Source of the DNA: an uncultured Chloroflexia bacterium
GTDB taxonomy: Bacteria; Chloroflexota; Limnocylindria; Limnocylindrales; CSP1-4
Direction: 5' to 3'
Assembly: GCA_963697275.1 (NCBI GenBank)
Contig: CAVONF010000003.1
Coordinates: forward strand, 607 to 64,606
Length of the DNA stretch: 64,000 nucleotides
The translations under genes were made by a program, and so were the position numbers. The notes under the pieces are model-generated. The model was not told the DNA's origin, did not search any database, and saw only the letters and a program-made list of their open reading frames with translations. How positions within the stretch are numbered: position 1 is the stretch's first letter; the number at the start of each line of letters is the position of its first letter. Below are positions 903-38,107 of this stretch, piece after piece.

Positions 903-1036
903 GGATGACGCCCACGGGGCGTTAGCACCCTGCTAGACAGCGGTGGGAGAATCGTGGCGTAGCGGGAGGCATTGAGACGCGGCCCCGTGGTGGCCGCCTT
1001 GGACCGCGCCGAGCCACTGGCGAACCCGGCCCGCCC
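903..1036 (+). promoter_or_regulatory. conserved leader element, diverged copy L10
   Basis: Retains GCACCCTGCTAG, GTGGCGT, AGCGGGAGGC, GACGCGGCCCC...TGGCCGCC..GGACCGCGCCGAGCCACTGGCGAACCCGGCCCGCC, with an extra ~11 nt in the 5' half. It ends 18 nt before ATG 1055. Confidence 0.6.
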
Positions 1037-1054
1037 GAGTATGGGGGACTTGTC

Positions 1055-1979
1055 ATGCGCAGGTCGTGGGCCGCTGCTGCGGCCTTCCTTCTCTTCATGA
1101 GCGTCGGCGCGCTGGCGGCGTCCGCGGAGGAGTCCTCGACGTCAGCGAGCGTCGAGATCCCCGCGGTGTACGCGCACCCCGAGGTCCTCGTCGACGCGGC
1201 CTGGCTCGCTGCACACCTCGACGACCCGACGGTGCGGATCGTGGATGCGCGCATGCCCTTCGAGGCCTCGCTCTACGCGTCAGCACACATCCCCGGCGCC
1301 GTCTTCGTCAACGTGAGCAGCGACCTCTGCTGCCCCTCCGGCATCATGCCTGCCGATGCGTTCGCCTCGCTCATGGGCAGGCTGGGCATCGGGGATGACA
1401 CGACCGTGGTCGTCTACGACACCGAGGGCGGCCGCTGGGCGGCCCGGCTGTGGTGGGCGCTGCACTACTACGGCCATGACGATGCGGCCATGCTGAACGG
1501 TGGCCTGCGTGCGTGGGTCGGCTCGGGCGGCGCGGTCGAGACCGAGGCGCCCGCTGTCGGGCCGGCCGTCTTCACACCGGAGGTCCAGCCACGCTGGCGA
1601 GCAACGATCGACGAGGTCAAGGCGGCCATCGATCGGTCCGCGGTCCATCTCGTGGACGCCCTGCCGCGGTCCAGCTACGCCGGCGATTGGCCCGACTTCG
1701 GCGGCGGACACATCCCGAGCGCGGTCAGCCTGCCGGCCCCCCGACACGCTCAACGAGGTCACACTCGCGGTCCACAGCCCGGATGTGCTCTCGCCCATGC
1801 TCATGCGCCTCGGGCTCGACCCAGCGCAGCGCAACATCACCTACTGCGGCGGCGGTGTCTACGGCGCCCACGATGCGTTCGTGCTCTACCTCATGGGCTT
1901 CGACGAGGTCGGTCTCTACGACGGCTCGCTGGGCGAGTGGACGAGCGACCCCTCCAACCCCGTGGAGGTCGTGCCCTGA
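1055..1979 (+). CDS. exported two-domain rhodanese (thiosulfate sulfurtransferase-like), frameshift at C-run 1736-1742
   Basis: ORF 1055..1990 N-part (signal peptide MRRSWAAAAAFLLFMSVGALAASA, rhodanese-like HIPGAV, DDTTVVVYD, ARLWWAL) joins the 1500..1979 frame (ITYCGGGVYGAH active-site loop, EWTSDPSNPVEVVP). Confidence 0.8.
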
Positions 1980-2035
1980 CATCACCGTGACCGCCGGGCG
2001 CCCGGCCATGGTGTCCCCGGCGCCATCAGGAAGCT

Positions 2036-2060
2036 GGCCCGTCCCACTCCGGGGCGGGCC
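2036..2060 (+). terminator. conserved cassette terminator hairpin (GGCCCGTCCC-loop-GGGGCGGGCC)
   Basis: 10-bp stem 2036-2045 / 2051-2060 with a 5-nt loop, 57 nt after the rhodanese stop. Confidence 0.55.
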
Positions 2061-2084
2061 AGCCCTCATCTCGGTCGCGCCCCT

Positions 2085-2216
2085 TTCGTGACCTCCGCCT
2101 CTTGCGCCCCGTGCTGCGGCCGTGGCGTCATACACGGCAGAGCGGGAGGCGCTGACGCACGGTCCACACCCTGGTCGCCGGGACCGTGCCGAGCCACTGG
2201 CGGACCCGACCCGCCC
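2085..2216 (+). promoter_or_regulatory. conserved leader element L1
   Basis: TTCGTGACCTCCGCCTCTTGCGCC...GTGGCGTCATAC...AGAGCGGGAGGC...GCACGGTCC...GGGACCGTGCCGAGCCACTGGCGG. It ends 19 nt before ATG 2236, with GGAAGGAG in between. Confidence 0.75.
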
Positions 2217-2235
2217 ACAGCGGAAGGAGATCGTG

Positions 2236-2792
2236 ATGCGGACCACGCGACACTCTCTCGGGGGAACACTGCTGGCGTGTCTCCTCATGGCGACGGCACC
2301 GCTACCGGGCGTGCTGGCCGCCGATGACAGCGCAGCCATGGCCGAACATCCCTTCGTCGGCGTATGGGTGGCTGACAGCGATCCCGGTGACCAGCTCGAG
2401 GGGAACGAGCTGAGCATCGTCGAGCCGGGCGGCTCGGTGGTGAACGTCCGACCCGATGCCAGCAACGCCGGGTGTGGGCCCCGACCGGCGAGCGCAGCGC
2501 GGACATGACGTTCTACGTCGCCATGACCGATCCTGAGGCCGGGTTCCTCGGCTTCATGCTCATCCGTGGCGACGCCGTCGTATCCGAGGATGGGCAGACC
2601 TTCAGTGGGACCTGGACCATCGAGTTCCCGCCCGCCGTGGTCGCAGCGACCGGGATGCCCGCCGGTCAGCTCGGGCCCGGCGAAGTGACCGGACGACGTG
2701 TCGACCTCGAGTCGATGGGCACTCCCGTCGCGCCCTGGCCGCTGCCGGCTCCTGCGGAGGAGGGGGCAACGGGCGAGGGGAGCTCCGAGTAG
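2236..2792 (+). CDS. secreted protein with lipocalin-like G-x-W / DG repeat pattern, frameshift near 2470
   Basis: MRTTRHSLGGTLLACLLMATAPLPGVLAADDS signal peptide (in ORF 2122..2508) joins ORF 2472..2792 (VWAPTGERSADMTFYVAMTD...GTWTIEFPP). Confidence 0.65.
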
Positions 2793-2831
2793 CAGCGACC
2801 ATGGGCAGCAGGCCCTCGTGCACTGACCGAC

Positions 2832-2855
2832 GGCCCGTCCCGCGAGGGGCGGGCC
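2832..2855 (+). terminator. conserved cassette terminator hairpin
   Basis: GGCCCGTCCC / GGGGCGGGCC stem with a GCGA loop, followed by TCTTCCTGG. Confidence 0.55.
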
Positions 2856-2933
2856 TCTTCCTGGGTTCGCGCCCCACGAGCAAGGTGGGCGCCCTGTCGC
2901 GCCCGTCGGCGAACCTGGGAGTGGTGGTGGCCG

Positions 2934-3227
2934 TCATCGCTGCGCGCGCTCACGCCTCCGCCGCGAGGCACAGCGCGGCCCGCACAACACCGCCTGCCGG
3001 CGCCGACCGTCGAGCGACATGCCGCAGCAAGCGCAGATGCGTCCGGCAGGCCGGCGGCCGATGGCGGTGCGGTGGACCTCGCGCCAGACCAGGGGGCGGC
3101 CACGGCCGGGTCGGGCCTCGAGGTCGACGCCGCACTGGCGGCAGTGGCGGGGTGGGATGACCAGCGCCCGCAGCTGCGCCTTGCCCATCCGCGCCAGGGC
3201 CTCGAGGTCATCCATCACGGCCATCAT
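2934..3227 (-). CDS. small zinc-ribbon protein (CxxC...CxxC...C..RC), paralog of 12398..12691
   Basis: ORF 2934..3227, MMAVMDDLEALARMGKAQLRALVIPPRHCRQCG...CACCG...RRRQAVLCGPRCASRRRR. A second copy lies 9.5 kb away. Confidence 0.65.
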   Translation of the reverse strand: MMAVMDDLEALARMGKAQLRALVIPPRHCRQCGVDLEARPGRGRPLVWREVHRTAIGRRPAGRICACCGMSLDGRRRQAVLCGPRCASRRRRERAQR

Positions 3228-3305
3228 CCCATCGGGCGACCGGGTTTCCGCATCAATACGGCGTAATCAGGCGAAACGCGGCCGCGTGCGTTACGTGCGG
3301 CGTGG
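2934..3305. repeat. segmental duplication C, copy 1 (Zn-ribbon gene + upstream block + MFS 3' remnant)
   Basis: Aligns with 12398-12775. The block 3228-3300 is almost identical. 3253..3305 keeps only TTPHVT.AA.FRLITPY*, the C-terminus of the MFS gene intact in copy 2. Confidence 0.75.
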
Positions 3306-3422
3306 TTCCCGGGCGCCGATGTCGCACACATGTATATGCCCCGGGCTTCAGCACCCTGGCTGGTGCACCTCGCGGCGCATCAGTCCGTCGGTCGGTGACC
3401 GCTCCTGCGTCCCCGTCACCGA

Positions 3423-3871
3423 TCAGCGATGTCTCCAGAGGCGCCACGAACCGGCCGCCAGGAAGATCGCGCCGAGGGTCAGGCCGGCGAGACCTCCTTG
3501 CTGGAAGAGATCCTCAAGCCGCACGCGATGCCAGGCGTGCAGGACTGGACCAGCGGGTCCAGCGACTGGGCCGTGCATGCGGCTCCAGGCACCAGGAACA
3601 GGAAGCCCACCGCTACCAGCAACAGACCCACGTCGTCCGCCAGGTACCGCATCTCGAACACCCGCAGCGCTGCGGCACGAGTATCCTGAGCTGGGAGGCT
3701 GACTTCGTTGAAGGAGCCCCGGATGACTGCGCCTGAGCCAGCTGCGACCGCTGGCCCGACGATGGCCTCGTCCATGCTCGGGCTACCGACGGCGATGCAT
3801 GGGCATCTACGAGTGCTAGCCTCCTCGAGCATGGCGACGAGCTCGTCGAGCTCGGCGTCGGGAGCGGTCAT
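3423..3871 (-). CDS. hypothetical protein with C-terminal TM segment, probable frameshift near 3540
   Basis: ORF 3479..3871 (MTAPDAELDELVAMLEE...LLLVAVGFLFLV) with good GC3. An alternative frame continues ...LFQQGGLAGLTLGAIFLAAGSWRLWRHR* to 3423. Confidence 0.35.
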
Positions 3872-3929
3872 GTAGGGTTCGCACGGGAACGGGCTCCCGC
3901 CGCCCCTGGTCCGGTCGTGCGAGCCGCTA

Positions 3930-4418
3930 TCACCCCAAGTTCACCCACACCACGGTGGTCACGACCCACGGGGCACCGCATGCGAACACGAGGAGGAGCC
4001 AGTCGCCGACGAAGCCCGCCACTCCGGAGCGGCGGAGCAGGAGCAGGGCCATGACAGCGGCGCACACCGGCAGGGCGACGATGCCGACGAGGACGCCGAG
4101 GAAGAACACCGCCATCGCCGCCATGCCCGGTGCCGGGTGACCGGGGACGTGGAGCGTGTCGATCACGAGCAGGTAGTGACCGAGGCTGTAGAGGAGCCCC
4201 GCCGCGACGCTGACCACGAGCGCGAGCCCGAGCCGATCTCGCCTGCCCGTGTCAGGAGCCTCGGGTCTCGGAGGACCGAGCGGCTGACGGTCATGGTCAG
4301 CGAGTCCAACGGGAGGACGCCGCGAACCTCGGCGCGGCCTGGCAACAGGTGTACCCCACCGTGGAGCTGACCGCGAACCCCGGCGCCGCTTGGCCACAGA
4401 TGCACCCCACCCTGACAC
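3930..4418 (-). CDS. small 3-TM membrane protein, paralog family with 4591 and 5083 genes (start uncertain)
   Basis: ORF 3930..4418 with hydrophobic helices LGLALVVSVAAGLLYSLGHYLLVI, MAAMAVFFLGVLVGIVALPVCAAVMALLLL, WLLLVFACGAPWVVTTVVWV. The Arg-rich N-terminal part may not be translated. Confidence 0.5.
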   Translation of the reverse strand: MSGWGASVAKRRRGSRSAPRWGTPVARPRRGSRRPPVGLADHDRQPLGPPRPEAPDTGRRDRLGLALVVSVAAGLLYSLGHYLLVIDTLHVPGHPAPGMAAMAVFFLGVLVGIVALPVCAAVMALLLLRRSGVAGFVGDWLLLVFACGAPWVVTTVVWVNLG

Positions 4419-4590
4419 CGGCAGCGAGCGCGACCTCCCGGTGTCACTGCTATTCGTCCACGGCTGGCTCGGGAGGTCAAGGGCTGGACGGCCTAGCGAC
4501 CCGGAAGGCGTGATGGCGTGTGATACCCGCAGCTACACGGTATGCACCACCCACCGACGACCTCATGGGACGGGCAATGGCTCCTCGGGC

Positions 4591-4914
4591 CTATAGCCCC
4601 CACAGGTGCTGCCACGTCACGAAGGTCCCGACGAGCAGACCCGTAACGGAAAGCCCGAGCAATAGGGCGGTGTTTGTCCGGTCGCCTTTGCGCACCAGAA
4701 ACCAGAGGACAACCCCCACGACCACACCGACGAAGTAGACAAGAAGGACGCCCGCAAGGAGGAGGATCACAGCGCCTTCGACGGGTGGTGGCTTTTCGGG
4801 GTCGGGCCGCCAATCGGCAAGGACGAAGTACGGCAGGAGTCCCAGCAGCAACCCGACCGTCAGCGCCCCGACGGGCCCGAGCAGGGAACTTCGGTCCCTC
4901 ATGGCTCTCATCAT
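4591..4914 (-). CDS. small 3-TM membrane protein
   Basis: ORF 4591..4914, MMRAMRDRSSLLGPVGALTVGLLLGLLPYFVL... Its upstream region is conserved with that of the 5083 gene. Confidence 0.6.
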   Translation of the reverse strand: MMRAMRDRSSLLGPVGALTVGLLLGLLPYFVLADWRPDPEKPPPVEGAVILLLAGVLLVYFVGVVVGVVLWFLVRKGDRTNTALLLGLSVTGLLVGTFVTWQHLWGL

Positions 4915-5082
4915 CCGCTCGAGCCGCTGGCCGGCAAGGGACGAATGGCCCGCGACTCAAAGCGTGACGACCGAGGCACGCCCCGCGAAGACTCGTCACC
5001 CCTCAGGTCGTGTGACATCAGCAGGTACGCGGTACGCACTACCTGCGGACGCCCCCTCAAGGGAGAGCGGGGGACCTCGGGC

Positions 5083-5406
5083 TCAGAGCACGGTCCACGT
5101 CAGGATGAACCCGGCACCGAGACCTAGCACTGAGACGAGACCAAGCAACAGGCAGCCGAGGCCCGGGGAGTCCGCGGGGCCCTTGGGGGGCTTCAGGAGC
5201 CAGACCCACCAGATGACGCCGACGACCATCGGCAAGACCACCAACGAGAGGACGTGGAAGGCCCAGACGCCCAGCAGCCATTCCCCACGGTCGCGGTAGC
5301 CACCGAACTCCCAGAGGAAGTGGGGGGCGATTCCCAGCAGCACTCCAGCCGCGACCGCCGCGATGAGCGCGACCGTGAAGCTTCGGTCCCTCATGGGCCC
5401 CATCAT
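5083..5406 (-). CDS. small 3-TM membrane protein
   Basis: C-terminal part of ORF 5083..5706 starting MMGPMRDRSFTVALIAAVAAGVLLGIAPHF (ATGs at 5406/5403/5394). Confidence 0.6.
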   Translation of the reverse strand: MMGPMRDRSFTVALIAAVAAGVLLGIAPHFLWEFGGYRDRGEWLLGVWAFHVLSLVVLPMVVGVIWWVWLLKPPKGPADSPGLGCLLLGLVSVLGLGAGFILTWTVL

Positions 5407-5509
5407 CCGCTCGGGCCGCTGGCAGGCAAGGGACGAATGGCCCGCACCTCGAAGGGTGACGACCGAGGCCCACCCCCCCCGAGATGCAGGCCCATTCCCG
5501 CACCCGGAC

Positions 5510-5632
5510 TTCGTGACGTGACCTCCGCCTCTTGCACCCCGTGCTACCGAAGCGGCACCCTCGCAGCAGAGCGGGAGGCCACGACGCACGGCCCACACCC
5601 TGGCCGCCGGGACCGTGTCAAGCCACTGGCGG
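5510..5632 (+). promoter_or_regulatory. conserved leader element L2 (variant, cargo displaced by IS)
   Basis: TTCGTGAC-GTGAC-CTCCGCCTCTTGCACCCCGTGCTACCG, then GAAGCGGCACCCTCGCAGC replaces the GTGGCGTCATAC box. The 3' half is intact through GCCACTGGCGG. Confidence 0.7.
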
Positions 5633-5664
5633 CCTGCCCGAGAGGTGACTCGGACCGAGACGTA

Positions 5665-7097
5665 CCGACGGGCGGAAGCATCCAATTCCCTGTGCTGCAT
5701 GGTCACGCGATGACGGCCAGGGACGCCGTGACATCGCGGATCGCCCGGCCCAGTAGCGGCCCCAGGTGCCGTTCAGACGGAGCAGCCGCAGCTGCAGCAG
5801 ATGGCTGACGCCACGCCGGAACCAGCTCATGCCACGGATCTTGAAGCGACGGGCGATGACGATGTCGACGCCCTTCTCCATGGGCCCTGAGCGGCCAGCG
5901 GCACGATGCGGTAGTTGGCGATGGCCCGGGCGTTGTTCGCGACGTAGCCGATGACGGCCCGACAGCGGGAGGCCTGCTCGGGGTCGTCCGTCTCGAGCGC
6001 GCGGGCATGGGCGCGCAGGATCGCCAGGAGCGCCTCGACATCGCCGGGGGCTGCCGCCCCCGGCGCCGCCGCGAGGACGTCACCGTGCTCGCGGCCGGTG
6101 CCGAAGCGGAGCTGCTCGACGAGGTGGTACCAGTCGAGCAGCTCGATCGCGTCGGGGAAGCTGCGCTCGCGGATCCATCGATCGCGGCGGCCCCGTCCGA
6201 CACGAAGAGGATGCGCCGGGCCTCGTAGACGCCCAGCTCCGCGCAGAGGGCGGTGAAGCGCTCCGCGAACGTCGTCCACGACCCGGTGTCGCCGACGAGA
6301 TGCCGGTCGAGGAGCCGGCGGCGGTCCTTGCCGATCCGCTCGACGCCGCTGAAGACGAGCCCGAGCTTGACCTCCAGGTGGGTGCCGGAGCCGCGGTCGT
6401 TGACCATCGTGCCGTCGGCCTGGACCCAGACGTCCTCCTCGGATGGGGCGAGCGTCGGGCCGCGCTCCGGGTGGGTCCCGAAGACCGCCTCCTGGCGGGT
6501 CGCGATCTCGGCCTCGAGGTGGGTCCCTTCCTCCTTCACCCAGGGGTGGAGCTGGCCGTGGCTGACCGGCAGGTCGCGCAGCTCATCGAGCGCTCGAGCC
6601 GTCCTGGCATAGGAGAGCTCGGTCACGAGCCAGAGGGCCCGCTCGCGGACCCCGAGGGTGTGCTGCACACGGGGCTCGAGGCCGAGCGCCGCGTCGAGGG
6701 GCATGACCTCGGCCCCACAGGCACCGCACCGATAGCGACGGCGGGAGAGCTCGACCTCGCCCGCGAGGGTGACGAGGCGACGGCGGGCCCGGCCGTTGGC
6801 CTTCAGGATGCCGCCGCAGTCGACATGCCCGCGGCCCACGACGAGCGCAGCCTCGAGCGCGCTGACGATCTCCCGCCACAGTCGCTCCCCGACCTCCGCC
6901 AGGCCAGCGCTGACGGCACGCTCGAGCGAGCCGATGTCGGCACCCTCCGGATGCAGCTCGATGGTGAGCGTGACCGGGACGGCGATAGACTGCATGGCGA
7001 GCCCCTTCGGTGCTGGTTCCAACACCTCCAGCGTACGGATGGGGCTCACCCTGTTCCCGCCGCGCCAGCACAGACGTTTGGATGCAAACCCGACGGG
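5665..7097 (-). mobile_element. insertion sequence, ISLre2 (UPF0236)-like
   Basis: Imperfect terminal inverted repeats: 5665-5697 CCGACGGGCGGAAGCATCCAATTCCCTGTGCTG versus the reverse complement of 7066-7097 CAGCACAGACGTTTGGATGCAAACCCGACGGG. They enclose a single transposase gene. Ends are uncertain by about 20 nt. Confidence 0.7.
5703..6995 (-). CDS. ISLre2-family transposase, at least 2 frame changes
   Basis: MQSIAVPVTLTIEL...RRYRCGACG...DGTMV...ILFVSDGAAAI (ORF 5703..7235), then LLDWYHLVEQL (5827..6279), then IARRFKIRGMSWFRRGVSHLLQLRLLRLNGTW (5618..5881). This motif order is typical of UPF0236/ISLre2 transposases. Confidence 0.7.
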   Translation of the reverse strand: MQSIAVPVTLTIELHPEGADIGSLERAVSAGLAEVGERLWREIVSALEAALVVGRGHVDCGGILKANGRARRRLVTLAGEVELSRRRYRCGACGAEVMPLDAALGLEPRVQHTLGVRERALWLVTELSYARTARALDELRDLPVSHGQLHPWVKEEGTHLEAEIATRQEAVFGTHPERGPTLAPSEEDVWVQADGTMVNDRGSGTHLEVKLGLVFSGVERIGKDRRRLLDRHLVGDTGSWTTFAERFTALCAELGVYEARRILFVSDGAAAIDGSASAASPTRSSCSTGTTSSSSSASAPAASTVTSSRRRRGRQPPAMSRRSWRSCAPMPARSRRTTPSRPPAVGPSSATSRTTPGPSPTTASCRWPLRAHGEGRRHRHRPSLQDPWHELVPAWRQPSAAAAAAPSERHLGPLLGRAIRDVTASLAVIA

Positions 7098-7106
7098 CTG
7101 GAGCTG

Positions 7107-7136
7107 TTGACAGCCCCTCGCGCGGTGGACTACCCT
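7107..7136 (+). promoter_or_regulatory. candidate sigma70-type promoter just outside the IS right end
   Basis: TTGACA (7107-7112), 18-nt spacer, TACCCT (7131-7136). Confidence 0.3.
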
Positions 7137-7287
7137 GCCGCCTTCTCGGTCGCGTGCGGCGGCCCCGGTGGCCTGGCCGATCCGGCGACCCACCGTGATA
7201 GGGGGCGCGTGGGGGGAGAAGGAGGGTGCCGTCATGGCCGCACCGCCACCACCCCTGGACCGTCCAAGAGAGCAGCGCGGCTAGCCA

Positions 7288-7452
7288 ATGCTGCTCGGCG
7301 ACTGGCTCATCCTCAGCGGGATGGCCATGCTCATCATCGGTAGCGGCGGGTGGATCCTGCTCGAGTGGGTCGCGATCCTCCCGTCGCTGGGCCGCTCCGA
7401 ACGACAACGCCGTCCCACCACGCACCCCTCGTCGCCGACCCCGACGTGGTAG
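7288..7452 (+). CDS. possible small membrane peptide (54 aa)
   Basis: Self-translated MLLGDWLILSGMAMLIIGSGGWILLEWVAILPSLGRSERQRR...; below the ORF-track size cut-off and has no strong RBS. Confidence 0.25.
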   Translation: MLLGDWLILSGMAMLIIGSGGWILLEWVAILPSLGRSERQRRPTTHPSSPTPTW

Positions 7453-7475
7453 TAATCACCGGGGGGAGCAGGACG

Positions 7476-7551
7476 AGCCGCAGGCCCTCCACGTCCGCGG
7501 CCAGCTCGATGGCGTCGCTGAGCGTGGCCCCACCGGGCGTGCAGGGACCGA
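7476..7551. repeat. repeat family D, copy 1
   Basis: AGCCGCAGGCCCT.CACGTCCG.GGCCAGCTCGAT.GCG...GTGCA.GGACCGA recurs at 25968-26043. On the minus strand both copies read GPCTPGG....AIELA.DV.GLRL. Confidence 0.55.
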
Positions 7552-7757
7552 CGCGCCCGGGTCTCACGGTCGTGGCGGACGCGGAGCTGCTGGCCACGCC
7601 AGGGAACGGTGAGCGGGTCGGGGGCCTTCACGACGCTGGGCTAACGGTCGTGCCGCGCCGGGCCGGATGGCACTCCACGCGGTCGGGTCCGGTCCCGTAG
7701 CTTCCGCCATCGGGACACCGCACGCCTCCCGCTTTGGCGCTGCGTTCGCGCCCGAAA

Positions 7758-7782
7758 AGGCCCGTCGCACACTGACGGGCCT
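7758..7782 (-). terminator. hairpin with T-tract on minus strand
   Basis: AGGCCCGTC / GACGGGCCT 9-bp stem with a 7-nt loop. The minus strand continues TTTTCGGG. The transcript it would terminate is unclear. Confidence 0.35.
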
Positions 7783-7860
7783 CTCCTCATGCCGCTGGAC
7801 CCCGACCCTCTTGGCAACGCGTCGATGAGCCTGGTCCATCGTCGGAGACACCGCACCACC

Positions 7861-7979
7861 TTCGTGACCTCCGCCTCTTGAACGACGTGCTACCCCTGTG
7901 GCGTCATACGCAGCAGAGCGGGAGGCGATGACGCACGGCCCACACCCTGGCCGCCGGGACCGTGCCGAGCCACTGGCGG
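7861..7979 (+). promoter_or_regulatory. conserved leader element L3
   Basis: Full consensus with the TTGAACG variant of the -35-like box. It ends 29 nt before ATG 8009. Confidence 0.75.
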
Positions 7980-8008
7980 CGGCCCGTCGAGCGAGAAGGG
8001 TGCAGGCG

Positions 8009-8452
8009 ATGCAGCACAGCCGTCAGGAGATCCGGGTGGAGGCACCCGTCGAGCACGTCTGGGCGCTCTTCGCGGACACGTCGCGCTGGGAAGAGTGGAT
8101 GCCCGCGAGGTTCTCGGAGTTCAGTGGCCCGGTGGACGAGGTCGGGACGACGTTCGTCCAGAGCGTGCGGGTCATGGGCTTCGAGCAGAAGATGACGGGC
8201 ACGGTCGTCGAGTTCGAGCCGCTGCGGCTCTACCACGATCACGTCGAACCCGGGCCGTTCGACAGCACCTTCCGCTGTGAGCCCGATGGTGAGGCGACCC
8301 GCTTCGTCTTCGAAGCCGACTACGAGCTCCCGGCCCAGCTGCCGGGCGTCGTCAAGCGTGTCGTGAACTCGGGCTGGATCGCGCGGAACCACCGCAAGAT
8401 GCTGGCCGACTTCAAGGCCCTCGCCGAGGCGAAGGTCCCGACACACGCCTGA
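8009..8452 (+). CDS. SRPBCC (START/polyketide-cyclase-like) domain protein
   Basis: Intact frame within ORF 7898..8452, starting MQHSRQEIRVEAPVEHVWALFADTSRWEEWMP, which is typical of an SRPBCC N-terminus. Confidence 0.75.
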   Translation: MQHSRQEIRVEAPVEHVWALFADTSRWEEWMPARFSEFSGPVDEVGTTFVQSVRVMGFEQKMTGTVVEFEPLRLYHDHVEPGPFDSTFRCEPDGEATRFVFEADYELPAQLPGVVKRVVNSGWIARNHRKMLADFKALAEAKVPTHA

Positions 8453-8466
8453 CCGCACCTCACTGA

Positions 8467-8490
8467 GGCCCGTCCCAGGAGCGGCGGGCC
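8467..8490 (+). terminator. conserved cassette terminator hairpin
   Basis: GGCCCGTC / GGCGGGCC stem followed by TCTTCCTGG, 15 nt after the stop. Confidence 0.55.
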
Positions 8491-8510
8491 TCTTCCTGGT
8501 CGCCCCGCAA

Positions 8511-8640
8511 CTCATGACCTCCGCCTCTTGCATCCGGAGCTACGTCCGTGGCGTCATACCCGACAGAGCGGGAGGCCATGACGCACGGCCCACGCCCTGG
8601 CCGCCGGGACCGTGCCGAGCCACTGGCGGGACCGGCCCGC
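8511..8640 (+). promoter_or_regulatory. conserved leader element L4
   Basis: CTCATGACCTCCGCCTCTTGCATCC...GTGGCGTCATAC...full 3' half. It ends 22 nt before ATG 8663. Confidence 0.75.
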
Positions 8641-8662
8641 GCATCGGGGAGGGGGTCTCAGC

Positions 8663-9408
8663 ATGCGTCAGCTCGTCTCCACAGCCCTCGTGGCCTGCAT
8701 CGTCGGGGCCCTTGCGGGGGCCAGCTTCGGAGCCATGGCCCAGGCCCCGGCCGAGCCACCGGTCACGACCACGGCGCTCAACGCGGATACGGTGGACCGC
8801 TTGAGCGCCGTCAAGGCCACGAGCAAGAAGGCCAGGCGCAAGAACAAGCTCGTGGCCACCGACTCGAAGGGCTTCCTGCCAGCCAACATCGTGAAGGCCA
8901 AGTGGGGCCTCATCGGCGGCAAGCCCGCCTTCCTGGCCGATGACCAGATCGCGTGGAACGAGGTCCAGGGCATCCCGGCGAGCCTCGCCGACGGTCAGAT
9001 CGGCTGGGCGAGGTGGCTGGCATCCCCGCGAGTCTCGCCGACGGGGTGGACGATGCCGGGGTGACGGGCCTCAAGGTCATCCGGGCGTACGGACCGGGCA
9101 CCACGATCTACGCCAATGCCACCGGCACGGCGTACGGCCGTGCCACCGTGACGTGCCCAGCGGGGTCCAAGGTCACAGGCGGCGGCTTCTTCGCGTCGAA
9201 CGCCCTCGACTTCCACCTGGGCACCTCCCTGCCGAGTGACACGACCACCTGGTACGTAGATGGCTACAACACCGAGCCCAATGGGGCTGGAGGCACCTCG
9301 GTCACCATCCAGGCCCTGGCCATCTGCATGAGCGTCGAGCCTGCGGGTGCCTTCACCTCGGCCAAGAAGGGCCCGCTGCCTGCCCGCGTGAAGCGGGCCC
9401 AGAAGTAG
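8663..9408 (+). CDS. secreted protein with tail-fibre-like W..(V/I).G(K/I)PA.LAD repeats, frameshift near 9005
   Basis: MRQLVSTALVACIVGALAGASFGAMAQAPA signal (ORF 8612..9064) joins ORF 8953..9408. It has three tandem repeats KWGLIGGKPAFLADD / WNEVQGIPASLADG / W(G)EVAGIPASLADG. Confidence 0.65.
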
Positions 9409-9489
9409 GGGTGACGGCTGGCGTGGCCATCGTGTGCTCCATCCCGCGAGGACTGTGCCACATCCCGTGTCGGACATGGCGCGAGGCAG

Positions 9490-9620
9490 GTCGTGACCTC
9501 CGCCTCTTGCACCCCGTGCTACCGATGTGGCGTCATACGCAGCAGAGCGGGAGGCCATGACGCACGGCCCACACCCTGGCCGCCGGGACCGTGTCGAGCC
9601 ACTGGCGGGACCGGCCCGCG
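9490..9620 (+). promoter_or_regulatory. conserved leader element L5
   Basis: Closest to the consensus. It ends 22 nt before ATG 9643. Confidence 0.75.
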
Positions 9621-9642
9621 TCGTGTGTCGGGGGGCAGCCTG

Positions 9643-10606
9643 ATGCGAAGGGTCGTACTGGGCGCGGCCGCGGTCGCGACCGGCACCGTGGTCTGGCTAC
9701 GCTCCGCAGGACGCCTCCGAGCGATGCCGAAGGCGGCCGCCGGTGTCTTCCCGAACGGCGTGCCATACACCCGGTGGGGCACGGCCGGCAAGAACCTCCT
9801 GTGGATTCGTGGGAGGTCCCGGCGAGTCAGCCCCGCGGGGACTGAGCGTGGTGCTGGCCAGGTTCTGGCTCCGACCGTACCTCGACAGCGGCTACACCGT
9901 CTGGATGGTGTCCCGGAAGCAGCACATGCCCATGGGCTACACCATCGCCGACATGGCCGAGGACTACGCGCAGCTGATCGCCGACCGCTTCGACGGTCGG
10001 ATCGACCTCGTGCTCGGAGAGTCCTACGGCGGCATGATCGGCTTCTGGCTGGCCGCCCGCCATCCGGAGTGCTTCGCTCACATCGCCATCGTCGCCGCCG
10101 GTGCCTACGTGCCCGATGAGCGCGCCCGGACGATCGACCTCGAGTTCGCCCGCTTGCTCGCGGGCCGGACCGGCGAGGCCGGGGCCCTACTGGTCCGGTT
10201 CCTCTACCCCGACATGCGCGTCCCGGGTGCGGCCCGGGTCGTCGGAGCGGTCCTGGGGCACCTCATGTTCGCGGAGACCCACCCCTACTACCGGCACGAC
10301 GTGCTGATCGAGGCCCAAGCCGACCTGGCGTTCGACGCCCGCGAGGTCCTGCCCGAGATCCGGGTACCCGTCCTGCTCATCGGCGGCGACCGCGACCAGT
10401 ACACACCGAAGTCGGTCTACGAGGAAACGGCGCGGCTCATCCCCGACTGCACGCTCGTGCTCTACGAGGGCAAGGACCACCTCGGAGCGATCAATGACAG
10501 GCGTCTGCACCGGGACGTGCTCGACTTCGTGGCGCGGCAGCCGAGGACCCGCTCGGCTGAACGGCCTCGCGGTCCGGTCCCTGAGCCGGTCGTCGGCAGG
10601 GCCTGA
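9643..10606 (+). CDS. alpha/beta hydrolase, N-terminal TM/signal anchor, frameshift near 9808
   Basis: [19 protein letters not shown] (frame of ORF 9493..10119) joins ORF 9743..10606, with nucleophile elbow GESYGG and the late motif GGDRDQYTP...GKDH. Confidence 0.75.
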
Positions 10607-10613
10607 CCGCTTG

Positions 10614-29075: not shown

Positions 29076-29092
29076 GGCGAGGGGGGCGAACC

Positions 29093-29895
29093 ATGCGCAG
29101 GCTGTGGGCCGTGGGAGCGGCCATCATGCTGTGCCTCGCGCTTCGGTCGCCGGTCGTCGGGCAGGAGGCTGCAACGAGTTGAAGTGCCGACCTGCCGGTG
29201 GCAGACGTGCATCCCGAGGTCCTGGTGGACCTGGAATGGGTCGCCGCGCACCTTGACGACCCGACCGTGCGGATCGTGGACGCTCGAATCAGCTGGCCGG
29301 CCTACTCGATGGGCCACATCGCCGGTGCTGTCTCCATCGACATCTTCGACGAGCTCTGTTGCCCCTCCCACATCATGGATGCCGAGCCGTTCGCGAAATC
29401 GATGGGCGAGAAGGGCATCGGAGATGACACGACCGTGATCGTGTACGACACCGAAGGCGGGACGTGGGTCGCCCGGCTGTGGTGGGCATTGCGGTACTAC
29501 GGCCACGAGGAGGCCAAGCTCCTCGACGGCGGCCTCCGTGCCTGGGAGGCCGGCGGTCTGCCGCTCGAGACGGAGGCGCCGGTCATCGAGCCGGCGATCT
29601 TCACGGCCCAGATCCAGCCCCAGTGGTACGCCACGATGGACGACGTAAGGGCCGCCATCGACGATTCCGACATCAGCATCGTGGATGCCCTGCCCGCCGA
29701 TAGCCACGCCGACGAGCACATCCCCACGGCTGGAAGCTCCCGGCACGGGAACTGCTCGACTGGACGGGAGTGGTCAAGGGAGCCGAGGACCTCTCGGCCA
29801 TGCTAGTTGGCGGGGCGCTGACCCAGCGGACGAGCGACCCTTCGAACCCGGTGGAGGGCGGGTCGCAGGCATCGCTCCTGGATGCGCGTCCCTGA
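29093..29895 (+). pseudogene. rhodanese paralog, frameshifted and lacking the catalytic-Cys segment
   Basis: MRRLWAVGAAIMLCLAL signal, then a stop. ORF 29198..29806 matches domain 1 of the 1055 gene. Domain 2 jumps from ...LSAML to TSDPSNPVE, so no CGGG loop is present. Confidence 0.7.
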
Positions 29896-30358
29896 CGAAC
29901 GAGGACGATGGGCCCACCGCGAGGGGGGCCTCGCCTATCGGGGCACCTTGTCGTTGGCGGCCCTCCACGCTCAGCCCACGCCCATCCAGGTACGCTTTGC
30001 CGGGGTCATGCGGGAGGTCCCCGACCTGCCCGATGGCGCGCAGCCCCATGAGCGCGTCGACGCCTACCCGGGTATCCGCCTCCACCGGAACACGGATGCC
30101 GGCCACAACGCCGAGGAGTGGGACTGCGAGGTGGACGCCGTCCTCGAGCGCCGGGAGGGCGACGCCGCGTGTGAAGCAGCGGGACGCCACCAGACGGGCC
30201 AGCGGCGCCCTCAGTGGCCCCGTCGCGCCCATGGCCGGAGGTGGCCTCCGGACGGTCGAGTGCTCATGCCCCGCCGCCGCAGCCCCACGACGCTGTCGCC
30301 GCCGCCGTGGAATGAGGGCCGGCGTAAGTCTCAGACCGATGACCCCATCGCGCCTTAG
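29882..30358 (+). CDS. hypothetical protein (uncertain)
   Basis: ORF 29882..30358 has nearly uniform G/C at codon position 3 over 29990-30180 (VMREVPDLPDGAQPHERVDAYPGIRLHRNTDAGHNAEEWDCEVDAVLERREGD). The quality of the 3' part drops. Confidence 0.3.
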   Translation: MRVPDERGRWAHREGGLAYRGTLSLAALHAQPTPIQVRFAGVMREVPDLPDGAQPHERVDAYPGIRLHRNTDAGHNAEEWDCEVDAVLERREGDAACEAAGRHQTGQRRPQWPRRAHGRRWPPDGRVLMPRRRSPTTLSPPPWNEGRRKSQTDDPIAP

Positions 30359-30666: not shown

Positions 30667-30796
30667 TTCGTGACCTCCGCCTCTTGAACCATCTGCTAGC
30701 CCTGTGGCGTCATACCCGGTGAGCGGGAGGCGATGAGGCACGGCCCATGCCCTGGCCGCCGGGACCGTGCCGAGCCACTGGCGGACCCGGCCCGCG
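30667..30796 (+). promoter_or_regulatory. conserved leader element L7
   Basis: Full consensus with the TTGAACC variant. It ends 19 nt before ATG 30816. Confidence 0.75.
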
Positions 30797-30815
30797 TCTA
30801 GGGGGGAGCTGAACC

Positions 30816-31978
30816 ATGCGCAGGATGTGGACCGCAGGCGCGGCCATCGTGGTGTGCCTGGCTCTCGGTGGAGCGCCCATGTCGGCTGCAGAGCTGCCCG
30901 AGAGCACCGGCATGCCCGGCAGTATCTGGCAACCTGAGACCGGCACCTCCACCTTCGTCATCGTCCATCCTGACGGGACGATGGTCGTCCAGCACGCCTT
31001 CTGGGGCATCGGGCTCGGGATACTGGGAACCGACCGGCGATGGCTCGCTGTCGAGTCGCGTCGACTTCACCTCCGGGTACGAGGGTGAACGAGGGACGCG
31101 GACCAGCCGATCCGACTGGCTCGTCGACGAAGCGGCCGAGACCGCGACACTGACGACCGATGAGACGTTCACCGGCCCCGACGGCGTCCCGCAGCCGCTC
31201 GAGACCAGTACCGAGACCCTCAGGCGGCTACACATGGCCCCGATGCCGGAGAATGCGGTCGCGCCCACCCCGCCCGATCCGGGCTGGCAGGCGGTCATCG
31301 GTCCAGCACGCTACGACCGCAGCGAGGCCGGGGTCATGGTCGAACCGTACAGCCCGCCCAACTACACCCTCGAACACGCCGACGGCACCGCGTTGTTCCT
31401 CAACCCCTACGTCAGTGATGGGGTCGGTCTCTGGGCCCCGGTCGGGGAGCGTGCCTACGTGGCGACGGCGTGGTTCCCGCGATGGCGGGGTGCCAACAGC
31501 CCGCTGGTATCGCAGGCCCTGGCCAATGAGGACACAGGCAGCAAGTCCCGTCGCTACGGGACATCGAACGGCTTCGAGGGCACGTCGTATGAGATGCCGA
31601 TGCGCTTCGAGCCGCTCGAGGGGGACCTCGCCGCCCCCGACCCGGGCCTGTGGCCCACGATCGGCAGCGTCTGGCAGGAGCCCTACGCCGAGGGCGACGG
31701 CCTGATCGATCCGCGTTGCCTACCTGGCGGACGGCACCATCGTGACCACCCATCCCAAGTACGGCATCGGTGTCGGTGAGTGGCTGCCGATCGATGAGGA
31801 CACGATCGCCAGCAACATCCTCTACAAGGGCGGGGACTGGTCCCTGAAGGCCGAGTCCACCGTCAGTGAGGATGGGGAGAGCCTCAGCACCCGGTGGGAA
31901 GCTGATGCCAACCTGGGCAATCCGGCCGAGGACGCAGCGGGGTCGTCGACCGCCAGCCGGATGCACCTCGAGCCATAG
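30816..31978 (+). CDS. secreted multi-repeat (lipocalin-like G-x-W...DGT...G-x-W-x-P-x-G) protein, at least 2 frame changes
   Basis: ORF 30816..31088 (MRRMWTAGAAIVVCLALGGAPMSAA), ORF 30868..31779 and ORF 31742..31978 join into about 387 aa. Confidence 0.65.
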
Positions 31979-32003
31979 GGTACGCCACGGGGAGGAACGA
32001 GTC

Positions 32004-32515
32004 ATGCGGGGGCTATGGGCTGCGAGTGCGGCCATCGTGTTGTCCATCCCGTTCGGCGGGCTGCCGGTGGTCGCGCAGGACGGTGCCACCTGGATCAGCG
32101 GCAGCGTGACGTGCGAGGTGTCCGACTGGGGCACGGAGAGCCAGGAGGGTGGGGTGGCGTCCATCCGTGACCGGCTGGCGACGTGCGCCGTCGCGGCGAG
32201 CGACCCACGCGCCAGCGGCTCCGGACCCCACGTCTACAACGAGGACTGCCGCTCCGCGAGCTGCATCGACTGGGGCACCTACGAGGTGATCGGAGCGGAT
32301 GGCTCATGGTCCGGGCCGTGGACCGGCATCGAGATCACCCGCTGGGATCCTCGGGGCGTACAGCGTCCAGACCGGCGGCGGCGCCTACGCTGGCTGAATT
32401 CGTCGTCACCCAGAACATCTGCGACTGCACGACCGGGACCATCACGCTCGAGGGCGTCATGTACGAGGGGCCGCCGCCACCCTTCGGACTCCTGCCGTCA
32501 GCGGCGAGCGAGTAG
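32004..32515 (+). CDS. secreted Cys-rich protein, multiple frame changes near 32340-32400
   Basis: GGGGAGGAA RBS, MRGLWAASAAIVLSIPFGGLPVVAQDG (in ORF 31866..32897), and C-terminal end in ORF 32183..32515 (AEFVVTQNICDCTTGTITLEGVMYEG). Confidence 0.55.
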
Positions 32516-34812: not shown

Positions 34813-34833
34813 CCATGAAGGGAGGGTAGCGTC

Positions 34834-36218
34834 ATGGTCATCAAGCGAGTGAGCGCAGAGCAGCTGGCGGACGAGATCGTCGCGCCGGCGTACACGCACC
34901 GCGCGGACCTGGGCCTCATGCCCAAGTACCGACTGCCCGAGCACGGGGCCTGGCCGGACGTCGCTGAACGGCTGGTCTACGACGAGCTCATGCTCGACGG
35001 CAACGCCCGCCTCAACCTCGCCACCTTCGTGACGACGTGGATGGAGCCACAGGCCGAGGCGCTCATGAAGACCGCCTTCGACAAGAACATGATCGACAAG
35101 GACGAGTACCCCGCGACCGCCGAGATCGAGCGGCGCTGCGTCAACATCGTCGCCGACCTCTTCAACGCTCCGGCCGATGGCGACGCGGTCGGCGTCTCGA
35201 CGACGGGCTCATCAGAGGCCGTGATGCTCGCCGGGCTGGCCATGAAGTGGCGCTGGCGCCAGCAGCGCGAGGCGCGGGCGAGGACACCACCCGGCCGAAC
35301 ATGGTCCTGGGCTCGAACGTGCAGGTGGTGTGGGAGAAGTTCTGCCGCTACTGGGACGTCGAGCCGCGCTACGTCCCGGTGGCGAAGGGCCGCTACACGG
35401 TCACGCCCGAAGACGTCGTCGAGCGCGTCGACGAGAACACCATCGGCGTCATCGCCATCCTGGGCACGACGTACACCGGCGAGTACGAGCCCATCGAGGC
35501 CATCCACGATGCCGTCGTGGCCAACAACGAGGCCAAGGGCCTGCCGGTGCCGGTCCACGTCGACGCTGCCTCGGGCGGCTTCGTGGCGCCCTTCCTGCAG
35601 CCCGACCTGAAGTGGGACTTCCGCCTGCCGAACATCGTGTCGATCAACGTCTCCGGGGCACAAGTACGGGCTCGTGTACCCAGGCATCGGGTTCGTCGTC
35701 TGGCGCGGCGAGGAGGACCTGCCCGAGGACCTCATCTTCCACGTCAACTACCTCGGCGGCGACATGCCCACGTTCACGCTCAACTTCAGCCGCCCCGGCA
35801 ACCAGATCGTGGGCCAGTACTACAACTTCATCCGCCTCGGCCGCTCGGGCTACACCAGGGTCATGGAGACGCTGCGAGGCATCGCCCAGACGCTGTCCGC
35901 GCGGATCGGCGAGATGGGTCCGTTCGCCATCGTCAGCGACGGCACGTGACATCCCGGTGCTGTCGTTCACGGTCCGCGATGACCTTCCCTACACGGCCTA
36001 CGACGTGTCCGACCGTCTGCGCTACCACGGCTGGCAGGTGCCGGCCTACTCGATGCCCGACAACGCCACCGACGTCGTGGTGCTGCGCATCGTCATCCGC
36101 GAGGGCTTCACGCGCGATCTCGCCGACAACCTGCTGGCCGACCTGAAGGCAGCGACGGAGCGACCTGCAGGACGACCCTCCGCTGAGGTCGGCGACGCGA
36201 ACAGGCTTCAGCCACTAG
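34834..36218 (+). CDS. gadB: glutamate decarboxylase (PLP-dependent), about 4 frame changes
   Basis: ORF 34834..35610, 35037..36146, 35674..35949 and 35330.. join. Motifs include LDGNARLNLATFVTTWMEP, TTGSSEA, HVDAASGGF, SINVSG(HKYG)LVYPGIGFVVWR and VLRIVIREGF. Confidence 0.85.
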
Positions 36219-36243
36219 GTCGGTTCCGAGCGCAGGCACCGCG

Positions 36244-37446
36244 ATGCCGGAGGCACCACGCGCTCGGGGCACCGAGAGCGGACCACGCGCGGGATCCTGG
36301 AGGCTGCTCGGCTACGCCGCGCTGCTGGGCGTCGTCGGCGTCGTCGCCGGCCTCGTCTTCATCAGCGTCACCGAGCCTCGGTGCCCGCTGGTACGGACAG
36401 ACCGGCTCCGGCTGGTTCGAGGGCCACGCCTGGTGGATCCCCGTCGCTGCAGGTGCCGGCCTGCTGGTCGGGCTTCTGCGGCGGCTACCTGCAGATGCCC
36501 GAGCAAGATGCCCGGGCTGGTCGAAGACCTCGCAGGCGAGCACGTCGAGCGCAAGGCCGTCGCGTCGATCGTCGCGGTCTCCGCGGTGTCGCTGGTCGGC
36601 GGCGCCAGCCTCGGCCCCGAGGTCGCGCTGGGGCAGATCGGCGGCGGCAGCGGCGGACCTCGTCGCCGGTCAGCGCGAGCTCGCCGAGGACGACACGAAG
36701 GCCCTCACGCTCAGCGGGCTGGCGGGAGCGTTCGGCGGCCTCTTCTCCAGCCCGTTGCTTGCGTCCTTCCTGGTGCTCGAGGTCGCGCGGCCCGCGCCCG
36801 GGACGCTTCGAGCGAGCCTTCTTCGGGTCGCTCGTCGCATCGAGCGTCTCGTTCGGCGCCACGTTCGCCATCGCCGGCAGCCTGTTCCTCGGGCATCTAC
36901 GAGGTGCCGGCCTACGAGTACGACGGACTGGCAGCTGCTGGCCGGGATCGTGCTGGGGCTGCTCGCCGCGCGTCAACCGTCGTCTTGCTGGCCGTGATCG
37001 GCAGCCATCGCCAGTGCCCGCGTTCGCCCGGCTGCCCGGGCCCGCGGTCGCCAAGCCCGTCGTCGGCGGCGCTCGCTGTTCGGGCTCGTCGGCGTAGCCC
37101 TGCCGCTCACGAACTTCACCGGCAGCGAGCAGCTCGCGGTCGTCGCTGCAGGAGGCAGACGGACTCGGGCCGGCGCTGCTCGCCGCGACCCTGCTGGGCA
37201 AGATGGTCGCGTTCGTGGTGAGCTCCGCCTCCGGTTTCATCGGCGGCCCGATCTTCCCGGTCCTGTTCATGGGCGGCACCGCCGGCACGGTCGTCCACGA
37301 GCTGCTCCCGGCCGTGCCGCTCGGCCTGGCCTTCTCGTGCATGCTCGCCGCCGTGCCCGGCTCAGTGGTCGTCAGCGCCGTTCTCGATGGTGCTCCTCGC
37401 CGCGCTGTTCACCCAGGTCGGCTCGCCGCATGGCGAGGAGGCGTGA
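36244..37446 (+). CDS. clcA: ClC-family chloride channel / H+-Cl- antiporter, many frame changes
   Basis: Pieces of ORFs 36244..37221, 35330..36997, 36381..37097 and 37203..37589, with the GGASLGPEVALGQIGGG selectivity motif and FIGGPIFPVLFMGGTAG. Confidence 0.7.
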
Positions 37447-37951
37447 GTCTCGTCCGCCCATCCCCGCCAGGCGTCAGCTGCGAGACGTCGACTGCGTCGG
37501 GCACCGTGGTGCAGGTGTGCGACACCGGACCGGGACGTGCCGGACTCGAGCAGCCGGAGACCGATGGGGTTCGGCAGCCGCGACCATGAGGGACTCGTGA
37601 GCTCCTGGCACGCCGGTGGTCCCTTCCGGGGACCGATCGAACGGGTCGGGGTCCTCGACCGTGGTGACCCGCGCCAGGCCCGGATCCGATGCGACCATGC
37701 GCCACGCCGGATGCAACGATCCAAGCCACCGTCGAATGCGATCGTGACCAGCGTGGGCCACGTCCGCTGTGCCAGTGTCCAGCCGGTAGGGGCTTGATCT
37801 GCGTGCCGGATACCTCTGCTCGCAGAGCCGTGGCCCGACGGTGGATGCTAGTGACGGCGCAGCCCACCACGTAAGTGGCCAGAAGTACTCCACAGTGGCA
37901 CGGTCACCCACCATCGTCACCGCTTCGTCCAGACAGAGGTTTCTGTGCGCC

Positions 37952-38107
37952 TTCGTGACGTCGGCGGACGCCCGTGGCGCCACGCGATGGCCGGAGCGTG
38001 GCGAAGGTGACCCGCGACTCTTGTGCCAACCGCTACCCCCGTGGCGTCATAGGCACCAGAGCGGGAGGCGACGACGCGCGGCCCACGACCTGGCCGCCTG
38101 GTCGTAC
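37952..38107 (+). repeat. conserved leader element L9, degenerate with 47-nt insertion
   Basis: TTCGTGAC-[47 nt]-GTGACCCGCGACTCTTGTGCC...CGTGGCGTCATAGGCACCAGAGCGGGAGGCGACGACGCGCGGCCCACGACCTGGCCGCC. The 3' part has diverged and no GCCACTGGCGG is present. Confidence 0.6.

Follow-up and report, generated by a model that had tools for sequence, protein, structure and literature searches.

Nine copies of an orphan c-di-GMP-II-GAG/GCG-type riboswitch and one remnant, most of them preceding genes, in a stretch of Limnocylindria-type Chloroflexota DNA

The DNA analysed here is a 64,000-nucleotide (nt) stretch of contig CAVONF010000003.1, from an uncultured Chloroflexia bacterium of the Limnocylindrales (assembly GCA_963697275.1). 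This whole stretch, called the window below, has a G+C content of 69.6%, and its first 38 kb carry ten copies of a non-coding unit of 125-135 nt, 8 of which are docked to a gene. The unit consists of two joined parts, a 5′ promoter-like module of ~50 nt and a 3′ riboswitch aptamer of ~85 nt, and this is why some 100 nt of leader appear conserved. The aptamer belongs to an RNA class already catalogued in Rfam, under the names c-di-GMP-II-GAG and c-di-GMP-II-GCG (c-di-GMP, cyclic di-GMP). In our view, each unit probably combines a promoter and, directly behind it, an orphan riboswitch of this type, whose 3′ end abuts the Shine-Dalgarno (SD) sequence of a single gene or short operon and which would gate translation initiation.

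The aptamer-bearing copies are labelled RS1 to RS9, and the tenth unit is a remnant at 38004-38101. The repeat families had been described in an earlier note on this DNA, with all copies on the + strand, and mechanical repeat finding (families D1-D4) as well as a reading of the copies recovered them at the same places. A pattern for the aptamer core, GGGAGGC-N3-GA-N2-C-N-CGG…GCCANTGGCG, gave 8 exact + strand matches in the window, compared to 0 in 100 shuffles, and a pattern for the 5′ half gave 8 matches where 0.3 were expected. R1, a covariance model built from the window copies, matched exactly 10 times in the window, always on the + strand and within 903-38135; its scan of 38-64 kb found no matches beyond 38.2 kb. 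The repeat therefore exists, as nine full copies and one remnant.

The window was then compared to Rfam with cmscan, using the curated gathering thresholds (40 bits for RF03169 and 47.9 bits for RF03170, both in clan CL00127). Nine of the 10 copies were assigned to one of these two families with 41.0-67.8 bits and E values down to 2e-11, and every match spans the model end to end (1-85/86). RF03169 (c-di-GMP-II-GAG) matched at 956-1040, 5565-5643, 7912-7993, 8562-8646 and 9541-9625, and RF03170 (c-di-GMP-II-GCG) at 2138-2220, 10665-10749, 28994-29078 and 30717-30801. Nothing else in the window reached threshold, and the remnant, near 38055, gave no Rfam match at E<=1 and fails the threshold of both families. 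The earlier note had considered a new class without Rfam match, and had named a significant Rfam hit as evidence to the contrary; nine such hits, all above the gathering scores, were found. Its proposal of a structured, non-coding cis-regulatory leader placed before start codons is supported by the riboswitch matches, and by the conserved fold and the start-codon spacing described below.

Some individual copies have to be redefined. RS1 and RS8, taken earlier for a diverged copy (903-1036) and a 5′-truncated one (28992-29075), are neither, because their aptamers are complete (49.4 and 55.2 bits) and the upstream sequence alone differs, being merely another module. The copy at 37952-38107 is diverged in the sense that its promoter module and the 5′ half of its aptamer are present, at 38004-38101, but the 3′ half is gone. 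RS3 (5510-5632) was called nearly intact: its module is there and its aptamer scores above gathering, but it lacks 6 nt in the pseudoknot/P1 3′ region, and also a gene. Finally, the statement that each copy lies upstream of a gene holds for 8 of the 10, with ATGs at 1055, 2236, 8009, 8663, 9643, 10766, 29093 and 30816, 15-30 nt 3′ of the unit; RS3 faces a transposase, and the remnant a decayed methyltransferase fragment.

One core-pattern scan of the GTDB genome collection returned at least 119 loci, labelled with L-numbers. Among the matches listed, nearly all of these loci come from metagenome-assembled genomes (MAGs) labelled Chloroflexota, Chloroflexia, Candidatus Limnocylindria or Limnocylindrales. 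Many of these genomes are Microflora Danica bins from long reads, and a few short contigs come from bins labelled otherwise; the genome of the window is absent from the loci listed. R1 detected at least 167 further copies in these loci (136 + 31), and Rfam confirmed 37 riboswitch matches in 18 of them, with both families present within single loci. Up to six copies were found within single 8-kb loci, and at least 13 copies in four loci of one MAG, meaning that dense arrays such as the one in the window are typical. We conclude that the family is concentrated, with nearly all its loci, in Limnocylindria-type Chloroflexota, an abundant, uncultured lineage of soil and freshwater.

The fold can be described on RS6, where the helices are P1 (GCGGG/CCCGC), P2 (GGC/GCC) and P3 (GCACGG/CCGUGY). 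A kink-turn (k-turn) signature is formed by a 3-nt bulge then GA, opposite a GA on the other strand, and a pseudoknot can form between the P3 loop GGCCGCC and GGCG…CCG, which lies immediately 5′ of the 3′ arm of P1. An alignment of 146 copies (A2), which was fitted to a covariance model and hence leans towards structure, has standard pairs in 94% of its cells, compared to 27-43% after a shift of the partners by 1-3 columns. Pairing reaches 96% in P1, 98% in P2 and 92% in P3. Changes on both sides are seen in 7 of the 14 pairs of P1-P3, or 9 of 21 if the pseudoknot is included, and none of 500 shuffles matched the observed values. Compensatory changes are found in P1 and P3, one P3 pair being GC 103 times and AU 19 times, and RS1 itself has an A-U to G-C swap in P3. 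The GA/GA columns of the k-turn are 94-99% conserved (GA at columns 21-22 in 144 of 146 copies, G at column 97 in 137, A at column 98 in 142), and its 3-nt bulge (columns 18-20) is variable.

At A2 columns 110-112, three unpaired bases separate the two pseudoknot helices; they read AGA in 58 copies, AAC in 37, GAC in 15, AAA in 9, GGA in 8 and AGC in 7. In the window, RS5 and RS6 have GGA, RS2, RS7, RS8 and RS9 have GAC, and RS1 has AAC. At the position that splits the two Rfam consensus lines, RS5 and RS6 carry an A and the five others a C, and the adjacent bulge bases match neither line. By their bulge bases, the window copies appear to mix both curated subtypes with in-between forms, and both models match neighbouring units of one genome. 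In the methyltransferase, SRPBCC and "MAEYGLF" groups, orthologues are preceded by xGA in some genomes and by xAC in others, and no consistent link was found between subtype and gene family. This interchangeability in front of orthologous genes argues for one common ligand, and the subtypes would then be functionally equivalent.

For nearly all of the 146 aligned copies, an SD and a start codon follow within a few nt, copy and gene pointing in the same direction. In 109 of 144 copies, 10-24 nt separate the model end from the start codon, and GGAGG or GGGGG stands in this interval. Between 800 and 11000, a region that holds 7 of the 10 units, no terminator hairpin was detected between aptamer and ATG, nor is there room for one. 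Since space and signal for an intrinsic terminator are both missing, the most natural interpretation is that translation initiation is controlled. In other genomes, 32 copies, mostly of the AGA type (L025, L074, L097, L093, L077, L084, L090, L072, L081, L085 and L049 are among them), have an invariant GCGUCCC 6-9 nt after P1, directly before the SD. It could pair with GGGAC at the P3 loop/3′ strand or with GACGC at the k-turn/P3 5′ strand.

Upstream of the aptamer, most window copies carry the module TTCGTGACCTCCGCCTCTTG-NAC-N~17-CGTCATAC, which ends a few nt before P1, and RS1 and RS8 a different one, …AGACAGCGG…GAGAAT/GATAGT. Across genomes, at least three unrelated upstream modules were found, all ending 0-5 nt before the aptamer; the class-b module (…GGAC/AGACA…GAGAAT(C)) does so in L002, L022, L035, L056 and L058. 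The class-a module, TCRYGAC-N4-8-GMCTCTNG, occurs 20 times in 0.79 Mb, and 16 of the 20 occurrences lie 27-32 nt before an aptamer. A −35 element, an 18-nt spacer and a −10 hexamer, with a transcription start site (TSS) just before P1, would take up this distance. The arrangement TTGNNC-18 nt-CGTCAT fits promoter geometry, with a non-canonical −10 and a predicted TSS 2-6 nt before P1. The TCRYGA core varies (TCGTGA, TCACGA, TCGCGA, TCATGA) without a compensating partner, which fits a DNA site for a protein rather than an RNA helix. A candidate helix of TTCGTGAC with GTCATACG within the 5′ module was rejected, as TCGTGA becomes TCACGA in other genomes with no compensating change. From these sequence features, we infer that the 5′ half may be a promoter/operator module acting as DNA. 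The two patches of substitutions reported in the earlier note correspond to the spacer of this putative promoter and to the stretch between the −10 hexamer and P1. Under the promoter reading, transcripts would start 0-10 nt before GCGGGAGGC, and the conserved module hints at an additional level of regulation, that of transcription.

The proteins encoded downstream are heterogeneous. Among 133 of them, a minority matched any listed Pfam family: 8 class I methyltransferases, 7 SRPBCC, 5 SnoaL-like, 3 alpha/beta hydrolases, 3 collagen-like proteins, 2 rhodaneses and 2 periplasmic binding proteins. A crude test finds a signal-peptide-like N-terminus in 87 of 119. The eight window genes encode two rhodanese paralogues, an SRPBCC protein, an alpha/beta hydrolase, a methyltransferase and three secreted proteins without Pfam match. 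Exported proteins and small SRPBCC, SnoaL and methyltransferase genes, with no metabolic pathway, point to a signalling molecule, and such a heterogeneous, export-rich regulon would be more like the regulons under second-messenger riboswitches than like those under metabolite riboswitches. A tblastn search of 0.94 Mb (window and loci), using GGDEF and EAL queries, returned no GGDEF and one EAL fragment, a sample small for a whole-genome statement; likewise, Pfam found no GGDEF, EAL or PilZ in ~40 open reading frames (ORFs) of the window, a small sample of the genome. The only link to c-di-GMP enzymes that was seen lies in L039 (927-3061, − strand), where a riboswitch copy with an unusually long leader of ~260 nt precedes a 523-aa secreted repeat protein, whose coding sequence continues at its 3′ end, across a frameshift, into the C-terminal part (one half) of an EAL (c-di-GMP phosphodiesterase) domain.

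Several controlled genes share a start of ~50 nt that is homologous as DNA and encodes a signal peptide, MRRxWAAxAAI…, and the mature proteins differ (rhodanese, periplasmic binding protein, protein without assigned function). Such starts are found at 1054-1110, 29092-29148, 30815-30871 and 32003-32059 in the window, the last with no riboswitch upstream, and in L088, L012 and L002. They hold a conserved GGCCGC-N4-GCGGCC hairpin just past the start codon, whose GCGGCC is also complementary to the GGCCGC strand of the aptamer pseudoknot. It is a possibility that modules made of leader plus signal peptide have been shuffled between genes.

According to the reading we favour, transcription would start a few nt before P1, from a regulon-specific promoter made of TCRYGAC, 4-8 nt, GCCTCTTG as −35, ~18 nt and CGTCAT. 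The first ~80 nt of the mRNA would fold into P1, P2, the k-turn, P3 and the pseudoknot of the P3 loop with the strand 5′ of the P1 3′ arm. A small molecule would fill the pocket at the pseudoknot bulge, the leading candidate being a nucleotide-type second messenger, by analogy with the parent class c-di-GMP-II. In this parent class, which contains a k-turn (PMC4316175), the ligand is bound in a pseudoknot triplex and translation is turned ON (PMC7583470). By fixing the C-rich 3′ half of the aptamer, the ligand would change the accessibility of the G-rich SD located 5-15 nt further on, and thereby gate translation initiation; the analogy would slightly favour an ON switch here as well. With dozens of units per genome, the outcome would be a regulon of mostly exported proteins in Limnocylindria-type Chloroflexota.

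Several results weigh against this reading. The scan of 800-11000 with the E. coli sigma-70 consensus gave 0 promoters. When an anti-SD strand was searched for with RNAduplex, by pairing the SD with the aptamer, no preferred columns emerged (−12.7 kcal/mol, compared to −13.4 for shuffled SDs), and the minimum free energy folds of eight window units are inconsistent between copies. Both pseudoknot helices are 91-94% paired in A2, in nearly invariant columns that hold no covariation for or against them; given this near invariance, shared by P2, the support for the pseudoknot and P2 comes from conservation and not from covariation. RS3 and RS4 have gaps in the pocket/pseudoknot region, which may mark non-functional copies or assembly errors. 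We know of no ligand reported for the GAG and GCG variants, and in a full-text literature search RF03169 and RF03170 turned up as names in Rfam model lists, with no experimental paper. The two families were reportedly defined by Weinberg et al. (PNAS 2017), in a survey of riboswitch variants with altered binding-site nucleotides, and they are said to have been separated from c-di-GMP-II for that difference. As these nucleotides differ, binding of c-di-GMP cannot be assumed for the window units.

Part of this evidence would also be compatible with other explanations. If the whole ~130 nt were transcribed, the CCUCC of the 5′ module (in GACCUCCGCCUC) could serve as an anti-SD or anti-aptamer strand by pairing with GGGAGG or the SD: CCUCC/GCCUC is complementary to the aptamer GGGAGGC and to GGAGG-type SDs, and the module is almost invariant in the window, besides failing the sigma-70 scan. 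We judge this unlikely, given that RS1, RS8 and most relatives are complete aptamers behind unrelated upstream sequences lacking CCUCC, and that the Rfam models begin at P1. The 27-32 nt spacing of the TTG motif and the uncompensated variation of TCRYGA, as discussed above, also speak against it. We find it just as improbable that the leader is bound by a protein or a small RNA instead of a small molecule, and acts as the translational operator of a secretion-related regulon. The lack of a known ligand, the absence of a metabolic clue among the controlled genes, and a sequence conservation beyond the needs of pairing, typical also of protein-binding leaders, are all in line with such an operator. 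On the other hand, the RNA is homologous, within clan CL00127, to an aptamer whose ligand binding is crystallographically proven (PMC7583470; PMC4316175), and it appears to have kept the k-turn and pseudoknot architecture of this parent.

The earlier note had also considered a recombination or mobility signal travelling with single-gene cargo. A mobile or recombining cassette, similar to a miniature inverted-repeat transposable element (MITE) or an integron, copying itself before genes with an incidental RNA fold, would account for the presence, within 38 kb, of many nearly identical copies that precede unrelated genes, one of them beside a transposase and another one decayed. It would also account for mosaic units such as RS8 and RS9, which have in common the aptamer, the SD and the first ~50 nt encoding the signal peptide, but neither promoter nor mature protein. 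However, no terminal inverted repeats bracketing the units and no target duplications were found, and in many genomes the units keep a strict orientation and a strict spacing to the start codon. Aptamer identity is 0.80 within one source and 0.78 between sources, values that also led us to reject concerted evolution or recent transposition, and the nearest relative of RS9, 97% identical, is an orthologous unit in another MAG (L088:2763). Moreover, substitutions that preserve base pairs indicate selection on the RNA, and the transposase is a separate UPF0236-family gene (ISKra4-type by reading), without riboswitch sequence. We therefore regard the cassette as very unlikely, and this part of the earlier proposal is not supported.

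The individual units, whose modules were recognised by reading and by patterns, are all on the + strand. RS1 begins with a class-b module (934-955, TAGACA…GAGAAT), a putative promoter with a −10-like hexamer at 947-952, followed by a complete aptamer (956-1040; RF03169, 49.4 bits; R1, 80.5 bits), the SD GGGGGA and the ATG at 1055. Its gene (1055-1990), identified by translation and rhodanese Pfam matches, encodes a secreted two-domain rhodanese with a frameshift near 1740, and the best match of the locus, among the matches listed, is L002 with 87% DNA identity. In RS2, the class-a module (2085-2135) has the geometry of a candidate promoter, with TTCGTGAC at 2085-2092, TTGCGC at 2102-2107, 18 nt, and CGTCAT at 2126-2131. 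The aptamer (2136-2220; RF03170, 61.8 bits; R1, 99.7 bits), with the P1 5′ strand GCGGG at 2142-2146, is followed by the SD GGAAGGAG and, from the translations, a gene for a secreted protein without assigned function (2236-2790).

RS3 has a promoter-like module with a GTGAC duplication and a diverged −10 region (5510-5564), and an aptamer (5565-5643) that scores 41.0 bits with RF03169, just above gathering. It is the only full unit without a gene: no ORF follows, and directly downstream, convergent to RS3, lies a UPF0236 (ISKra4-type) transposase-like ORF on the − strand (5706-7280; Pfam PF06782, E=1.2e-6). The cargo gene appears to have been displaced, and from this arrangement RS3 may have lost it beside the transposase. 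In RS4, the promoter-like module (7861-7911) and an aptamer with a 3-nt gap at the subtype bulge (7912-7993; RF03169, 49.6 bits) precede an intact gene for a 147-aa SRPBCC protein (8009-8452; SRPBCC cluster, Pfam Polyketide_cyc2).

RS5 has a promoter-like module in which CTCATGACC is a variant of TCRYGAC (8511-8561), an aptamer (8562-8646; RF03169, 60.9 bits) and a gene for a secreted protein without Pfam match (8663-9405). In RS6, the module (9490-9540) and the aptamer (9541-9625; RF03169, 67.8 bits, E=2e-11) are followed by an alpha/beta hydrolase gene, frameshifted early (9643-10606; Abhydrolase_1, E=1.5e-12), whose orthologues sit behind riboswitches in L097 and L055. RS7 is composed of a module (10614-10664), an aptamer (10665-10749; RF03170, 49.3 bits) and a class I S-adenosylmethionine methyltransferase gene (10766 to ~11582; Methyltransf_11 match) that belongs to a nine-member orthologue group behind riboswitches. 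The segment 11615-12334 is 82.5% identical to the gene that follows the riboswitch-led methyltransferase in L017, the two-gene arrangement being conserved.

RS8 and RS1 belong to a duplicated rhodanese unit. The RS8 aptamer (28994-29078; RF03170, 55.2 bits) is complete, lies behind a class-b-like module (…AGACAGCGGGTCGATAGT) and precedes the second rhodanese paralogue (29093-29860; rhodanese Pfam match at 29183-29803, E=1.6e-22). RS9 has a promoter-like module (30667-30716), an aptamer (30717-30801; RF03170, 61.7 bits) and a gene for a secreted protein, known from its translation and without Pfam match (30816-31990). The remnant retains a class-a module and the aptamer 5′ half up to GGCCGCCTGG, and scores only 33.9 bits with R1. 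In 3′ of it, a decayed methyltransferase fragment (…MAEALDLRPEDELL*VACGS…, 38180-38300, + strand) was recognised by eye against the methyltransferase group, and is unscored. An extra TTCGTGAC is present at 37953-37960, ~50 nt upstream of the remnant's own degenerate AAGGTGACC motif, which suggests an insertion or duplication within its decayed promoter module.

Single-base frameshifts affect most riboswitch-led genes (those of RS1, RS2 and RS5 to RS9) and the transposase. They were recognised by mid-gene jumps in the phase of GC3 (G+C at third codon positions), with homology going on in another frame. They fit indel errors of long-read metagenome assembly, and could also be real decay or pseudogenisation; the gaps of RS3 and RS4 may share their cause. 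Another short repeat, seen two or three times (761-860, 27384-27471 and 30190-30239), is composed of a GC-rich hairpin (CCACGGGCCCCGGGCG…CCGGGGCC) then CAGCGGCGCCCTCGGTGGCCCTGTGGCG, and has no Rfam match; it may be a terminator or an element resembling repetitive extragenic palindromes (REP). Dispersed direct repeats of 80-300 nt (2953-3252 with 12417-12716, 85% identical; 12062-12338 with 26327-26603, 91%; 7476-7556 with 25968-26048) are unrelated to the riboswitch and probably paralogous gene fragments.

The value of these units lies in the context they give to an orphan riboswitch: co-occurrence of the subtypes, a regulon of exported proteins, a shared promoter module and an uncultured lineage. 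These points could aid the search for the ligand, and are incremental over the known Rfam class. As a tentative idea, which we hold possible but less likely than not to be right, GAG, GCG and the intermediate forms (GAC, AAC, GGA) might be one functional class sensing a single second messenger other than c-di-GMP. With a promoter and a transcription factor of its own (the TCRYGAC-GCCTCTTG module), it might govern exported proteins throughout the uncultured class Limnocylindria, as a large regulon with two layers.

Compared to known systems, the units resemble MITE- and REP-type repeats in being short, multi-copy and intergenic, but differ from them by the lack of terminal inverted repeats, by strict orientation and distance, and by a fold kept through compensatory changes. 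They are closer to the c-di-GMP-I and c-di-GMP-II regulons of Clostridioides difficile, where many copies per genome each precede a different gene, often for an exported or surface protein, and where tandem and multiple arrangements of the riboswitches are known (PMC9481103). Unlike these, the window units are orphans that share a conserved promoter module. With the canonical c-di-GMP-II family (RF01786), they have in common the clan, the overall architecture, the k-turn and, as predicted, the pseudoknot that builds the pocket. The studied examples of this parent are from Clostridium and Clostridioides (Bacillota), whereas the window units are from Chloroflexota; structure 3Q3Z is that of the Clostridium acetobutylicum aptamer. 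The variant models beat RF01786 for all 9 window copies and the 37 copies in related loci, Rfam reporting the best clan member only. Finally, the units share with RF03169 and RF03170 scores above gathering, the helices, the k-turn, the GCCACUGGCG…ACCGNCC 3′ strand and the placement in 5′ untranslated regions. They differ in the bulge, which is GAC, AAC or GGA in the window compared to AGA (GAG) and AGC (GCG) in the Rfam consensus lines, and in the attached promoter module, a feature of the window units that lies outside the Rfam families.

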